Shown here: positions 33,292 through 56,332 of the stretch, piece by piece
Layout of the letters: each line of letters starts with the position of its first letter
Position numbering within the stretch: the stretch's first letter is position 1
Origin: a virus
IMG/VR virus record: IMGVR_UViG_3300042324_001267
Direction: 5' to 3' (one strand)
Length of the DNA stretch: 64,000 nucleotides
The notes under the pieces: generated by a model
What the model saw: the letters and a program-made list of their open reading frames with translations, nothing else
What the model was told of the DNA's origin: nothing
Database searches by the model: none
Made by a program: the position numbers and the translations under genes

Positions 33292-33867
33292 ATGAAAAGA
33301 TCACAACTAGTAAAGTTAATAAAAGAAGAAATTAACATACAGGATAACGGACCAGAAGAAGCACAGTTTGATACAGAGTTAATGTCAACTGCTAACGGTA
33401 TTGCAGCAGCTATAGGTACAGAATTAAAGAATAAAAAACAACAGAACGAAGGTCAGTTAGATGAAGCAATTGTAGCAACTGTAATTGTAGGAGTTTTAAC
33501 AGGAAATGCACTTATAGGGTTTATTTCTAAAATGGCTGCTAGACTGTTAAAGAAACTTAACTGGAAAAAAGGAGAAGACTTTGCAGAAAAAATACACCAC
33601 TGGGCACATGATAATGAAAAAGCTTTTCAATCTCCAATTAAAAGAGTGTTAGGGTTTTTTATAAAAGATCCAAATACATTAGAAACAACAACTAAAGCTA
33701 TCTATGCAATTGTTATTGCAAGTATGGCAGCAGGATATGGAGCAGAAGCAGTAAGCGGATTATCAAAAGCAGATTGGTTTCAAGGAGCATTATCTTCTTT
33801 AAAAACAGTAGCCAAAGCAGATGAAGCAATACTAAATGCATACCCAGCAATTAAATCAATACTATAA
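33292..33867 (+). CDS. Leader-bearing protein with hydrophobic C-terminal domain
   Basis: MKRSQLVKLIKEEI leader; LDE|A then hydrophobic helices. Confidence 0.7.
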   Translation: MKRSQLVKLIKEEINIQDNGPEEAQFDTELMSTANGIAAAIGTELKNKKQQNEGQLDEAIVATVIVGVLTGNALIGFISKMAARLLKKLNWKKGEDFAEKIHHWAHDNEKAFQSPIKRVLGFFIKDPNTLETTTKAIYAIVIASMAAGYGAEAVSGLSKADWFQGALSSLKTVAKADEAILNAYPAIKSIL

Positions 33868-45799: not shown

Positions 45800-46690
45800 A
45801 TGGCAGATAATTTCAACTTAAGAACATTCTTAACAGAGAATAAACTTACTAAAAATGCACAGCTTCTTTCAGAAGGAATAGAGTTTAACGGTAAACCGGT
45901 AAACGTTGGATCGGTAGAAATCGATGGAATAGATACAGAAGATTACCCAGACTTTGTAGATGCATATATTGCAGCAGCAGAATACGAAGACGGTACTCCA
46001 TTAACAGACGAAGAATTAGTACAGTTTCAAGAAGAAAATTACGATTTAGTAAGCCAAATGATTCACGATGATCAGCTATACTTAGAAGCAAAGAAAGAAG
46101 ATGGTATGGAAGAAGCATCTAGCGAGGATATGGCTTATACTGAAAAAGTTGACGAAGCTTTAGCAGAAAGTAAATTAACTGCTAAAGAAAGACGTTTAGT
46201 AGAAATGGTTCAAAATGCTTTAGGAGAAGAAAATGTAGATTATACAATGGGACGTCAAGACGATCCAAATCAACTACCAAACCCAGCACCAGAACTTAAC
46301 ATACCAGAAGGAGAAGCTAATATAGAAGAAGCAAAACCTCTTCCAAAATATGAATCAATTGAAGAATTGATGAAAGAGATTGAACACGGTACTAACGAAG
46401 CAGCTCACAAATACAAAATGGATGAGATGAAAAGAGTTTACGAGGCTTTAGAGGCTAAAGTAGGGTCTTTAGAAGAAGGAGAGCATGCTGAGCATATCGA
46501 TCAAAAAGCTGTTAAGCAAATGCGTAAAGATATTGCAACATTAAGAAAAGCAGAAGAGAAATTAAGAAAAGAATTTGATAAAAAATTCTCAGGTAAAGAA
46601 AAGAAAGAAACTCCAGCTAAAGAAAAAGCAGTAGAAGCTTTACAAGAAGGATTCAACTTAAGAAAATTCTTAGCAGAAAACAGAAAATAA
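45800..46690 (+). CDS. Acidic hypothetical protein (putative head core protein)
   Basis: FNLRTFLTEN at N-terminus and FNLRKFLAEN at C-terminus. Confidence 0.7.
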   Translation: MADNFNLRTFLTENKLTKNAQLLSEGIEFNGKPVNVGSVEIDGIDTEDYPDFVDAYIAAAEYEDGTPLTDEELVQFQEENYDLVSQMIHDDQLYLEAKKEDGMEEASSEDMAYTEKVDEALAESKLTAKERRLVEMVQNALGEENVDYTMGRQDDPNQLPNPAPELNIPEGEANIEEAKPLPKYESIEELMKEIEHGTNEAAHKYKMDEMKRVYEALEAKVGSLEEGEHAEHIDQKAVKQMRKDIATLRKAEEKLRKEFDKKFSGKEKKETPAKEKAVEALQEGFNLRKFLAENRK

Positions 46691-51332: not shown

Positions 51333-52310
51333 ATGAGAACTTTACAAGAAAAATATAACGGAATTCAAGAGGGAAAATTCTCTAAAGAACATTTCTTAGC
51401 TGAAGCTAGAATGCAACTTCCAAACTTAATAACTCGTTTCAATGGATACGATGATGCTGTTCAGATTTTAAAGAACAGAGGAATGATTCAGGAAGCTAGA
51501 GTAGAAGAAGCTAGACTTACTAAAAACAATCTAACAGATTACAGATTCAAACCAACTAACGAAATGGATAAGTATCCATACGAACAGATTCTTAGAGGAA
51601 TCAGAGTTGAGTTAGAGGTAGCAGGGGTTCTTGGAACACCAACAGCAGAAGAATATTCAAAAGCATTAGTAAAAGTATCTAAAAACTTAGCAAAAGATTC
51701 TATATTCTATACAAACCAGTTAGCAGGAGTTAATCCAAAAGTGGATCTTCATGATAAAATGGTACCTGTAACAGCAAAAAACACTGTAGATGTTTTTAAC
51801 GGTATGAAAAAAGCTGAATTAAAAGAAGGCTTTAAAAAACTAATTAAAAAAGTATTATCTGAAGAGGTAATGGATGTTGAAAGCTATAAAGAAGACGAAG
51901 TATACGAAATGTACGGAGAAGATGAAGCAGATGACATTCCACATCCAAGAGGATACGAAGACCAAGACGAAATCGACTACGATGACGAAAACTTCTCAGA
52001 TCCTTTCATTGATGACCCAGATTTTCAATTTGAATCAACAGATACTGAAGCTGACAAAGATATGGTTCGTAAATTAATGACCATGTACGAAACAGAGCCT
52101 TCTAAATTTGAAAAATTACACAAGCAAGCACAAACTCAAGCATCTACTTCTAAAGATATTAAATTTAAACATTTATTATCTCTAATTGATAGAGCTAAAG
52201 CAGGAGCTTTACAGAGTTTATCTAATCAAGATAAAGCACAAGCTGATAGTGAAGGAATGGATGAAGATCTTTACAAAGGAAAAAAATCGTTATCTGAATT
52301 ATTAAAATAA
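51333..52310 (+). CDS. Putative prohead core protein
   Basis: Multiple IQE/VEE/LKE sites, internal FKKLIKKVLSEE, acidic tract. Confidence 0.6.
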   Translation: MRTLQEKYNGIQEGKFSKEHFLAEARMQLPNLITRFNGYDDAVQILKNRGMIQEARVEEARLTKNNLTDYRFKPTNEMDKYPYEQILRGIRVELEVAGVLGTPTAEEYSKALVKVSKNLAKDSIFYTNQLAGVNPKVDLHDKMVPVTAKNTVDVFNGMKKAELKEGFKKLIKKVLSEEVMDVESYKEDEVYEMYGEDEADDIPHPRGYEDQDEIDYDDENFSDPFIDDPDFQFESTDTEADKDMVRKLMTMYETEPSKFEKLHKQAQTQASTSKDIKFKHLLSLIDRAKAGALQSLSNQDKAQADSEGMDEDLYKGKKSLSELLK

Positions 52311-52315
52311 GAAAG

Positions 52316-52894
52316 ATGAACAATTTATTAGTAAATGTAACTCCTTTCAAAGGAATGCTTACCGAATCAAAGGCTAAACCCGGAGTATTCGAAGTAACAG
52401 GCATTATGCAGAGAGCAGGAGCTAAGAATCAAAACGGAAGAATCTACAAAAGAGAAATTCTTGAAGAAGAAGTAAAAAATTATGTAGAGAATTTTGTTAA
52501 GATAGGAAATGCATACGGAGAATTAGATCATCCAGAATCAGCAATTGTCTCTTTAAAAAACGCATCACACGTTGTAAAAGACTTATGGTGGGATGGAGAT
52601 GACTTGATGGGTAAAGTTGAATTACTAAATACACCCTCAGGAAATATCGTAAAAGAAATATTAAGAGGAGGACATACAATTGGAATCTCTTCAAGAGGAA
52701 CAGGATCAGTATCACAAACCAATGAAGGAACTTTAATGGTACAGGATGATTTTGAATTAGTATGTTGGGATTTCGTTTCTAATCCATCAACACAAGGAGC
52801 TTTTATGAATCCAATTTCACTAAACGAAGGAAAACAATCAGTAGGAAAATACGATAGATTAGATTCTATTATTAACAATATATTAAGAGCATAA
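52316..52894 (+). CDS. Prohead protease (T4 gp21-like)
   Basis: NQNGRIY, GELDHP, ASH, GISSRGTG, DFVSNPS. Confidence 0.95.
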   Translation: MNNLLVNVTPFKGMLTESKAKPGVFEVTGIMQRAGAKNQNGRIYKREILEEEVKNYVENFVKIGNAYGELDHPESAIVSLKNASHVVKDLWWDGDDLMGKVELLNTPSGNIVKEILRGGHTIGISSRGTGSVSQTNEGTLMVQDDFELVCWDFVSNPSTQGAFMNPISLNEGKQSVGKYDRLDSIINNILRA

Positions 52895-53291: not shown

Positions 53292-54680
53292 ATGTCAAAC
53301 AAAGATTTATTAAAGCAAGCTATTGCTGAAGCGAAAACTATTCGTGAAGCTGCAATTGCCAACGCTAAAGAAGCTTTAGAAGAAACATTAACTCCACACT
53401 TAAAAGAAATGCTTGCTCAAAAGTTGCAAGAAATGGAAGATAAAGAAGATGAGGTAGTTGAAGAAAACATCTATGAAGCTGAAGAAGAAGAGGTAGAAGC
53501 AGGAGAAGGAGAAGAAGGAGCTGAAGAAGAAGCTGGTGAAGAAGAAGAAGGTAACGAAGAAGAAGAATTAGAAATCGAAGATATGTCTGTTGAAGACTTG
53601 AAAGATCTAATTAGAGATATCGTTGCACAAGAAGTAGGTCATGACGAATCAGAAGAAGAATTACCAGGCGAAGAAGCTCCAGCAGGAGAAGAAGATATGG
53701 TAAGTATGGATGGTGATTCAGAAGAGATCGATATTAACGAATTATTAGCAGAATTGGACGAAATGGACAAGGAAGAGGTTAAAGAAGAGAACATAAACGA
53801 AATGGGACCGGAGTATATCGAAGGAGCAGCACAGCTTGTTGAAATGTTTCCATTCTTAACTATGCAAACCGCATCATTAGTTATAGGAGCACTTGGTGCA
53901 GCAGGTCTAGCAGGATTTTCTGCAATTGCTGCTAAAGTAATGGATATGGCCCTAGCAGGTAAATTTGGAACAACAGGTAAAGCTTTTGCTGAAAAATTAC
54001 AAGCAGCAGGTGGTGCAGCAGCCAAAGTTACCCAAAACAGAGAAGGTGTTGAAGCAGTAAATGAAGAAGAAAATATAGATGAAAATATCGATATTATCTA
54101 TCAACTTATTGATGCTTTCCCATTCTTAACTAACCAAACTGCACAATTAGTAGTTGGAGCTTTAGGAGCAGCAGGTCTTACAGGATTATCTGCTATCATG
54201 GCTAAAGTACACGAAATGGCTAAAAACGGAGTTTTTGGTGAAAAAGGAAAACAAATCGGAGATAAATTATCCGATGTTGGTAGTGCAGCAGCAGGAGCAA
54301 GAAACGTATCTGAAGAGTCTGAAGAATTAAACGAAGCTTTAAAGACAGTTAAAATCTTAAGAAACCAACTTCAAGAAGTTAATCTTCTAAATGCAAAATT
54401 ACTTTATGTAAATAAAGTATTCAAATCAACTAACTTATCTGAAGGTCAAAAAGTAAATGTTATCGCAGCATTTGACAAAGCCGAAACAGTTAAGGAAGTA
54501 AAATTAGTTTTCGAAACAGTTTCTAAAAATGTAGTTACTAAACCAGCCGCATTAAAAGAGCACAGATCTTTTGCTTCTAAAGCAACAGGTAACGCAAACA
54601 CAACTGCACCAAAAGAAATCTTATCAGAAGTATCTGAGCAAGTATCAAGATGGCAGAAGTTAGCAGGAATTATTAAATAA
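53292..54680 (+). CDS. Prohead scaffold protein (gp22-like position) with hydrophobic insert
   Basis: Acidic coiled-coil protein between protease and capsid genes; C-terminal RWQKLAGI. Confidence 0.75.
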   Translation: MSNKDLLKQAIAEAKTIREAAIANAKEALEETLTPHLKEMLAQKLQEMEDKEDEVVEENIYEAEEEEVEAGEGEEGAEEEAGEEEEGNEEEELEIEDMSVEDLKDLIRDIVAQEVGHDESEEELPGEEAPAGEEDMVSMDGDSEEIDINELLAELDEMDKEEVKEENINEMGPEYIEGAAQLVEMFPFLTMQTASLVIGALGAAGLAGFSAIAAKVMDMALAGKFGTTGKAFAEKLQAAGGAAAKVTQNREGVEAVNEEENIDENIDIIYQLIDAFPFLTNQTAQLVVGALGAAGLTGLSAIMAKVHEMAKNGVFGEKGKQIGDKLSDVGSAAAGARNVSEESEELNEALKTVKILRNQLQEVNLLNAKLLYVNKVFKSTNLSEGQKVNVIAAFDKAETVKEVKLVFETVSKNVVTKPAALKEHRSFASKATGNANTTAPKEILSEVSEQVSRWQKLAGIIK

Positions 54681-54706: not shown

Positions 54707-56332
54707 ATGGAATTAAATCAATTATTCGAAGGGGCGAACAACTATAAGACTTTACAAGCTGATGCAGCTCGTTTGTCTGGTAAATGGGCCAAATCAGGTT
54801 TGTTAGAAGGAATTTCTAACGAAATCGAAAGAAACAACATGGCTATGATTCTTGAGAATCAAGCAAAACAAATCGTATCAGAAAATACTACAGGTACAGG
54901 TGCAATGGGTACTTCTACAGGTGGTGCTGAGCAATGGGCTGGAGTAGCTTTACCATTAGTACGTAAAGTATTCGCTCAAATCGCAGCTAAAGATTTCGTT
55001 TCTGTACAACCAATGAACTTACCTTCAGGACTTGTATTTTACTTAGACTTTAAATACGGTACAAACGCAGTAGGTAGAACAGACGGGGATAACCTTTACG
55101 GTAACGTTTCTACAGCTAACTCTAAAATTGGAGTAGATGTTGATCCATCAGGAGGTTTATACGGAGCAGGTCAATTTGGTTACTCAATCAACTCTGCATC
55201 TTCTGCAGGAGTTTACAGTACTACTGGATCAGCAGTATCTTCTTCTATCGCATACCAAGATGGAATAAATCCTTCAAACTATTTTACATTAGCATTCGGA
55301 ACAGGAAGTATCGCAGGATTCGATCCTAAAGGTGTTAGAGCATTCAGACTTTACTCTGCTTCAGTAGATGTAACTTCTAACCCAGAACTTACTTTCTTAT
55401 CTTCTTCTGCAGCAGGAGAATATGTGAAATTCGTAGGATTAGCATCAGGAATCACTACAGGATCTTTCACAGCTACTGTAAAATACCAAATGCAACCAAC
55501 TGACAGATCAAGAGGTGACTTCGAAGACGGAGGAACTAACCCAGCAGGAAACAACAACGGAACTATTAAAATTCCTGAAATCAACGTATCATTAGCTTCT
55601 GAAGCTATCGTTGCTAAAACAAGAAAATTAAAAGCACAATGGACTCCAGAGTTCGCACAAGATCTTAACTCTTACCATTCAATTGATGCTGAAGCAGAAT
55701 TAACTTCATTATTATCAGAGTACATCTCTATGGAGATTGACTTAGAGTTAATGGATATGTTAATCCAAGATGCAGCTACAACTGAAAGATGGTCAGCAGT
55801 TAACAACAAAAACTGGAACCCATCAACTAATGCTTGGGAAACAGGTACATTCAATGCAGGAACTAGTTTCTACAACACTCAAGGTCAATGGTTCGGAACT
55901 TTAGGTACTAAAGTACAAAAAGTATCTAACAAAATTCACCAAAAAACTTTAAGAGGTGGAGCTAACTTCTTAGTATGTTCTCCAACTGTAGCTACAATCT
56001 TAGAATCAATTCCAGGATATGCAGCAGATACAAACGGTGACAAAATGGACTTTGCAATGGGAGTTCAGAAAGTAGGTAACTTGAATTCTCGTTTCAGAGT
56101 TTACAAAAACCCTTACATGACTGAAAACGTAATCTTATTAGGTTACAGAGGATCTCAATTCTTGGAAACTGGTGCAGTTTATGCTCCATATATTCCATTA
56201 ATCATGACTCCATTAGTGTACAATCCAGAAACCTTTACACCAGTAAAAGGTATCATGACTCGTTACGCTAAGAAAATGATCAGACCAGAATTCTACGGTA
56301 AAATCTTCGTTAGCGATATCGCTACTGTATAA
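54707..56332 (+). CDS. Major capsid protein (T4 gp23-like)
   Basis: ILENQ, VQPMNLPSGLVF, AKTRKLKAQWT.E.AQDL..H..DAE.EL, YAPYIPL, P.KGIMTRY. Confidence 0.95.
   Translation: MELNQLFEGANNYKTLQADAARLSGKWAKSGLLEGISNEIERNNMAMILENQAKQIVSENTTGTGAMGTSTGGAEQWAGVALPLVRKVFAQIAAKDFVSVQPMNLPSGLVFYLDFKYGTNAVGRTDGDNLYGNVSTANSKIGVDVDPSGGLYGAGQFGYSINSASSAGVYSTTGSAVSSSIAYQDGINPSNYFTLAFGTGSIAGFDPKGVRAFRLYSASVDVTSNPELTFLSSSAAGEYVKFVGLASGITTGSFTATVKYQMQPTDRSRGDFEDGGTNPAGNNNGTIKIPEINVSLASEAIVAKTRKLKAQWTPEFAQDLNSYHSIDAEAELTSLLSEYISMEIDLELMDMLIQDAATTERWSAVNNKNWNPSTNAWETGTFNAGTSFYNTQGQWFGTLGTKVQKVSNKIHQKTLRGGANFLVCSPTVATILESIPGYAADTNGDKMDFAMGVQKVGNLNSRFRVYKNPYMTENVILLGYRGSQFLETGAVYAPYIPLIMTPLVYNPETFTPVKGIMTRYAKKMIRPEFYGKIFVSDIATV

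Follow-up and report, generated by a model that had tools for sequence, protein, structure and literature searches.

Why should a protein encoded at the position of a phage head scaffold carry two closely related hydrophobic units in the middle of an otherwise acidic chain, and what becomes of these units as the head matures? The question is raised by a 64,000-nucleotide (nt) stretch of viral DNA (IMG/VR record IMGVR_UViG_3300042324_001267; hereafter, the window), in which a plus-strand open reading frame (ORF) at 53292..54680 encodes a protein of 462 aa with a pI of 4.3. Upstream of it, on the same strand, lies a prohead maturation protease gene (52316..52894; Pfam Peptidase_S77, E 2.5e-35; PHROG 207, E 5.9e-52), the product of which is a homologue of T4 gp21 (36% identity over 158 aa, E 2e-32); the alignment of these two proteins includes the stretches around the catalytic His and Ser of T4 gp21. 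Downstream is the gene for a major capsid protein of the gp23 family (54707..56332, plus strand; Pfam Gp23, E 8.3e-80) that aligns with T4 gp23, and a T4-type portal and terminase are encoded farther upstream of the protease. The order of protease, scaffold-position gene and capsid gene also occurs in related contigs, and it is identical in the closest isolate, Flavobacterium phage vB_FspM_immuto (genus Immutovirus). The source of the window is an Immutovirus-like, T4-type marine Flavobacterium phage (a flavophage).

Because the protease gene lies upstream of ORF 53292..54680 and the gp23-family capsid gene downstream, with the same order in immuto, the encoded protein occupies the gp22 position, i.e., between the prohead protease and the major capsid protein. 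The preliminary description of this locus had named it a scaffold, a designation that stood as regards its acidic composition and its gp22 position beside a true gp21 homologue, but that gained nothing from sequence homology to T4 gp22. More specifically, BLASTP against T4 gp22 returned E 0.12, hhalign a probability of 0.6%, and the protein had no match in Pfam (E ≤ 0.01), PHROG or NCBIfam; membership of the T4 gp22 family PF25623 (T4_CASP) by profile was accordingly rejected, T4 gp22 itself matching that family at E 6.8e-89 as a positive control. The protein has more than 7500 homologues; these hardly vary over their first ~50 and last ~118 residues, between which lies a hypervariable centre. 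In the window, an N-terminal helix (aa 1-49), which belongs to the nearly invariant part of the alignments, and a strongly acidic region (aa 50-170; net charge -54) together span 53292..53801 (plus strand), and a conserved C-terminal domain (aa 345-462) spans 54324..54680 (plus strand). The latter is 83 to 100% identical in the 120 homologues listed, whichever centre they carry, and 47% identical to a protein encoded upstream of the capsid gene of Microcystis phage Mel-JY01, in which there is no central cassette and the acidic region runs straight into the C-terminal domain. The AlphaFold2 model of the full-length protein was poor (mean pLDDT 51), with long N-terminal helices predicted at low confidence and values of 62 to 75 for both hydrophobic units. 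Our best reading is that the protein is a scaffold, on the basis of position, composition and predicted helices rather than homology. Its immuto homologue (L001:6001-7242; MW353176.1) is annotated as a DNA polymerase phi-like protein, a label that almost certainly reflects a spurious match to the acidic region.

The two related hydrophobic units that had been reported within 53802-54318 are present as quoted (aa 171-342), and we refer to them as modules H1 (aa 171-247; 53802..54032, plus strand) and H2 (aa 265-339; 54084..54308, plus strand). By BLASTP, the two are identical at 42 of 72 positions (58%) without a gap (E 1e-25), and at the DNA level they share a 119-nt core (74% identity), the two copies of which lie 270 nt apart. 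Their description as Gly/Ala-rich and hydrophobic was borne out: Gly and Ala together make up 39% of the first unit and 29% of the second, GRAVY values are +0.69 (H1) and +0.33 (H2), the Kyte-Doolittle maximum over 19 residues is 1.98, and each unit contains an uncharged, Gly/Ala-rich run of 30 residues (aa 185-214 and aa 275-304). The accompanying description as cationic did not hold, as the cores have a net charge of 0 and pI values of 6.1 and 6.8 (5.0 and 5.7 with their acidic tails), and a slight positive net charge, by a count made by eye on the translation, is confined to the C-terminal third of each unit. Compared with five relatives, dN/dS was 0.16 to 0.44 for H1 and 0.25 to 0.40 for H2, versus 0.10 to 0.22 for the C-terminal domain; these values lie well below 1, and H is therefore constrained, though less so than the scaffold termini. 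A 128-aa antisense ORF across H1 (53639..54025, minus strand; Ala/Pro/Ser-rich, without homologue support) was dismissed as a gene and is taken as a by-product of Gly/Ala codons on the coding strand.

The uncharged run is long enough to span a membrane, and a prediction of transmembrane or amphipathic helices had been proposed as a check on these units; the structural model gives a folded mini-domain. AlphaFold2 applied to H1 alone, with 28 aligned units, yielded a model (pLDDT 79.6, pTM 0.61) of four helices of ~13, 13, 13 and 23 residues, in which the run is split at a Gly-rich turn into two 13-residue helices that form a hairpin, flanked by two further amphipathic helices. H is thus predicted to be a compact four-helix mini-domain, i.e., a small folded bundle rather than a single transmembrane helix. 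No family in Pfam, PHROGs, NCBIfam or PADLOC corresponded to H, its sequence matched nothing among PDB sequences at E ≤ 1, and Foldseek searches of its predicted fold against PDB and BFVD returned nothing at E ≤ 0.001. A wide VIA-align search gave a best Z of 6.0 with generic small helical (UBA-like) bundles, and the nearest ESM Atlas clusters were unnamed viral proteins (0.90 to 0.91); the named clusters in that atlas (LPD22, LPD14, PT-TG and P22 gp16) scored 0.79 to 0.85, were rated as leads only and were set aside. Another ORF of the window, 33292..33867, was tried as a third H-like module and rejected, its match to the H profile among the window ORFs being insignificant (E 0.83). As modelled, H is a new, very narrowly distributed small hydrophobic fold without annotated relatives.

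Alignment of homologues revealed that the insert varies in copy number, one of the outcomes envisaged at the outset. In 197 unique full-length scaffold homologues, a sample biased toward relatives of the query, we found no copy of H in 112, one copy in 45 and two in 40. H is likewise absent from the whole genomes of two complete relatives, namely, immuto and a 162-kb contig with terminal repeats, and the phage collection contained no H-bearing isolate. At least eight mutually unrelated cassette types occupy the same site of the scaffold, often as tandem duplicates or a triplicate; the immuto homologue, for instance, carries a duplicated non-H cassette in this central bay, and in some homologues the centre is only 32 residues long. 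Scaffolds with C-termini 96 to 98% identical to that of the window bear different centres. On a tree of the conserved flanks (FastTree; 161 rows, 238 columns; of low resolution), the presence or absence of H requires at least 26 parsimony changes, versus 52.6 ± 3.5 for shuffled labels. Fragments predicted to arise from such bays are mostly basic (median pI 8.3), and only 11 of 118 have a GRAVY above 0.3, H being the hydrophobic exception. We read the scaffold centre as best explained by a hypervariable bay into which unrelated cassettes of 45 to 90 residues are inserted, and in which they are duplicated and exchanged. H is a modular, accessory unit under purifying selection. In one metagenomic relative (L009:3001-3585), the scaffold frame stops after 195 residues and the next ORF starts exactly at the first residue of H1, representing either a sequencing frameshift or a truly split gene.

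H also occurs outside the scaffold. A profile of both units matched only 18 proteins among 1.84 billion representatives; of the 14 that we read, three were evident chance matches to low-complexity or repeat sequences, and the others were uncharacterised proteins or proteins of phage head modules. One of the families concerned is represented in the window by a 296-aa protein encoded directly upstream of the terminase (45800..46690, plus strand), which itself lacks H. Its orthologues P0161 and P0162 each carry one central H between hydrophobic-x-Glu tripeptides, and P0162 has further inserts besides H at this variable central site; the 45800..46690 protein therefore looks like a second cassette carrier of the head module. 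A nearly identical motif of ~12 residues is found at its extreme N- and C-termini. In the contigs L090 and L092, the scaffold and the 45800..46690-type protein carry one H each. The idea that two flavours of H are kept in every genome fits these two contigs but was rejected, as contig G003, the coordinates of which should cover both H-hosting genes, has only one H.

In addition, tandem pairs of a shorter H variant, in which nothing is left but the hydrophobic helix and the Lys/Gly-rich segment after it, occur in small or unrelated non-scaffold proteins (P0165, P0166, P0169 and P0172), of which P0165 is encoded next to a tail sheath gene. P0165 and P0166 also have short N-terminal segments that end in hydrophobic-x-Glu, which is suggestive only. 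A further protein, P0160 (L095:3740-4444; 234 aa), is encoded immediately downstream of the protease in a T4-like contig of different organisation (order: tube, portal, two small ORFs, protease) and bears an H1-type module; it was set aside because the contig may be chimeric, given its 2.5x coverage and an odd, unrelated-looking 3' end. P0160 left aside, these occurrences show H to be mobile between proteins. Two other features of the window concern small or variable proteins. The product of the ORF just upstream of the protease (51333..52310, plus strand) is conserved in its N-terminal half, and its C-terminal half varies in length and content between relatives (325 aa in the window, 383 aa at L090:16354-17505 and 307 aa at L092:9230-10153), with a short module repeated internally in relatives; this protein may be a third variable carrier. 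Five plus-strand ORFs (starting at 33292, 33878, 41811, 42738 and 51110) begin with a similar Lys-rich amphipathic leader of the type M-K-K/R-S-E/Q-L, followed within ~10 to 16 residues by a hydrophobic-x-Glu tripeptide, and this leader may be a capsid-targeting-like element common to several small proteins.

The boundaries of H in the scaffold coincide with candidate protease sites, and all four flanking tripeptides named in the preliminary description (INE, VNE, IDE and VSE) are present. I-N-E (aa 168-170; 53793..53801) stands just before H1. The acidic linker between the modules (54033..54083) holds V-N-E (aa 256-258; 54057..54065) and I-D-E (aa 262-264; 54075..54083), and V-S-E (aa 339-341; 54306..54314) follows H2, all on the plus strand. 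I/L-N-E precedes 35 of 35 H1-type modules in homologues, and I/M/L-D/N-E precedes 61 of 61 H2-type modules (P3 I, M or L; P2 D or N; P1 E throughout), with P4 to P6 varying. This pattern extends beyond H: directly before the first conserved residue of almost every cassette type (start anchors picked by eye) stands an [MLIV]-x-E tripeptide, conserved at P3 to P1 and variable at P4 to P6. The assignment of these tripeptides to the T4 gp21 type was likewise upheld, since their conserved hydrophobic-x-Glu form resembles L/I-x-E, after which T4 gp21 cuts, gp22 being cut into several fragments (PMC9026906). Counting against the reading of H as an excised unit, candidate sites are also present within the modules: L-V-E at aa 182-184, which the H1 subtype conserves, and V-H-E at aa 306-308.

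Counting the motif is less informative. [MLIV]-x-E occurs 227 times, versus 157 ± 10 in composition shuffles, but the mirror pattern E-x-[MLIV] is commoner still and likewise enriched over shuffles, so acidic linkers with scattered hydrophobic residues could yield [MLIV]-x-E by themselves and the motif statistics are weak; we therefore discarded shuffle enrichment as evidence for cleavage. The capsid protein offers a separate view. Throughout the family, its first 59 aa are conserved and end with a V-S/A-E site, beyond which the sequence is variable, and the maturation site of T4 gp23 falls within ~10 residues of this site in the alignment with T4 gp23. In the window (54707..54883, plus strand), the N-terminus is kept as far as V-S/A-E at residues 57-59 in over 40 of the listed relatives, and a variable Gly/Ser/Thr-rich stretch follows. 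V-S/A-E is likely the propeptide cleavage site, and would provide an independent calibration of the protease motif; it is of the same type as the V-S-E after H2. Across the scaffold homologues, H is consistently bounded by hydrophobic-x-Glu tripeptides, which we regard as putative cleavage sites.

On balance, we lean towards the reading that the scaffold centre carries exchangeable accessory cassettes that are excised by the prohead protease, and that H may then be retained in the head and ejected in the manner of T4 internal proteins. The conserved N- and C-terminal parts of the 53292..54680 protein would do the scaffolding, the gp21-type protease would cut at the junction tripeptides during head maturation, and every scaffold subunit would thereby release one copy of each H, as a mini-protein of ~8 kDa folded into four helices. 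Like T4 internal proteins, freed H might then remain inside the capsid and pass into the host together with the DNA. Inside the host, the buried Gly/Ala-rich hydrophobic hairpin might conceivably open and insert into a membrane, a hypothesis prompted only by the hydrophobicity of H. We word retention and ejection more cautiously than excision because most T4 scaffold core fragments leave the head (PMC9026906). A compact 76-residue protein, IPI*, is kept in T4 heads (PMC3012670), and H is of matching size. In sum, the scaffold probably doubles as a carrier that brings small accessory proteins into the capsid. A bolder form of this reading, in which the scaffold throughout this large group of marine T4-type phages is a polyprotein delivery vehicle for an exchangeable arsenal of small proteins, released by the head protease in hundreds of copies per capsid and injected, with H as a new membrane-inserting effector that acts at infection on the inner membrane of the host, possibly in paired paralogous flavours, strikes us as doubtful.

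The departure of most core fragments from the T4 head (PMC9026906) would suit another account, which we consider possible, if on the unlikely side: the cassettes are filler in the scaffold core, or set its length, volume or charge balance; they are lost together with the remaining scaffold, by degradation or expulsion, and have no role after assembly, their variability being mere tolerance. Consistently, the centre is dispensable, shrinking to the 32 residues seen in some members and to nothing in Mel-JY01; the mostly basic fragments could offset the very acidic N-terminal region; and dN/dS is higher in H than in the termini. Each cassette type, however, remains recognisable across diverged backbones, and dN/dS of H is well below 1. 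Moreover, H moves intact into other proteins and stands on its own in small ones, it is predicted to fold independently, and simple filling gives no reason to keep a 30-residue uncharged Gly/Ala run. That same run, together with the positive GRAVY of H and the labelling of some homologues as small membrane proteins by JGI pipelines, could point to a role during assembly, in which H mediates scaffold self-association or tethers the core transiently to the cytoplasmic membrane until cleavage releases the prohead. T4 proheads indeed assemble on the membrane and detach after processing by gp21 (PMC9026906). We nonetheless find such a role improbable, given that H is missing from complete genomes of close relatives whose portal, protease and capsid genes are the same, so that assembly does not need it, that H occurs in non-scaffold proteins too, and that the AlphaFold2 model buries the hydrophobic helices in the bundle.

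A further alternative is that H is indeed released and injected, and acts as a soluble four-helix binding protein rather than at a membrane, for example by inhibiting a host defence or a takeover factor in the way of T4 IPI*. The predicted fold is compact and confident, and its 13-residue helices would singly be too short to span a bilayer; H is not cationic; and its patchy, accessory distribution resembles that of those hypervariable internal proteins by which T4 counteracts particular host nucleases (PMC3012670). Against this, a soluble protein of 75 residues would not usually have a GRAVY of +0.3 to +0.7 or go 30 residues without a charge, and the shorter H variants are reduced to precisely the hydrophobic helix and the Lys/Gly-rich segment; we rate a purely soluble effector as unlikely. 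The reading of excised cassettes, perhaps retained and ejected, is the one that we find plausible and favour. The family has thousands of metagenomic members. If cleavage and retention were confirmed, phages would have here a compact way to load and diversify injected proteins, the bays, with no fewer than eight cassette types, would supply many uncharacterised candidates for small effectors, and the arrangement would offer a natural design for packaging foreign peptides in capsids.

Among known systems, pore-forming and bacteriocin-like peptides, to which the units had been likened in the preliminary description, share with H a size of ~8 kDa, a helical nature, a Gly/Ala-rich hydrophobic core segment and frequent pairing. 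That resemblance went no further, as sequence, profile and fold searches gave no link to such peptides, and H, unlike them, has no family match and no secretion leader, is not cationic and is predicted to form a soluble bundle. T4 gp22 is comparable to the window protein in gene position, acidity, predicted helicity, richness in hydrophobic-x-Glu and the neighbouring protease, a true gp21 homologue; the two differ in length (269 aa versus 462 aa) and in lacking any sequence or profile similarity, and the hypervariable bay of cassettes predicted to fold independently is undescribed for T4 gp22. The giant phages phiKZ, 201phi2-1 and SPN3US likewise have a diverged gp21-type protease, which cleaves numerous head proteins behind the Glu of short motifs; the fragments set free remain in the head, where they serve as ejection proteins (PMC9026906). 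These, in contrast, are separate large proteins that lose propeptides, bear no sequence relation to the present ones, and no exchangeable scaffold bay has been described for them.

The textbook case of counter-defence cargo packaged in virions is that of the T4 internal proteins, each with its own gene and targeting peptide. Like IPI, IPII, IPIII and Alt, H represents small accessory proteins that are highly variable between related phages, and its patchy occurrence in a hypervariable site is what characterises internal proteins of the T4 type. T4 internal proteins are packed into the core, undergo trimming after Glu and remain in the head until injection (PMC3012670, PMC9026906), and we presume that H is core-loaded and trimmed after Glu as they are. 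H has no sequence relation to them, and they are basic, whereas H is hydrophobic and near-neutral (pI 5.0 to 6.8), the other bay cassettes being basic. A further difference is one of arrangement: T4 internal proteins come from separate genes with an N-terminal targeting peptide of their own, whereas H in the window, being internal to the scaffold, has no capsid-targeting peptide of its own at its N-terminus and would have to be cut on both sides. Here, the cargo is apparently built into the scaffold, and into a second head-module protein, as interchangeable cassettes bounded by protease sites.
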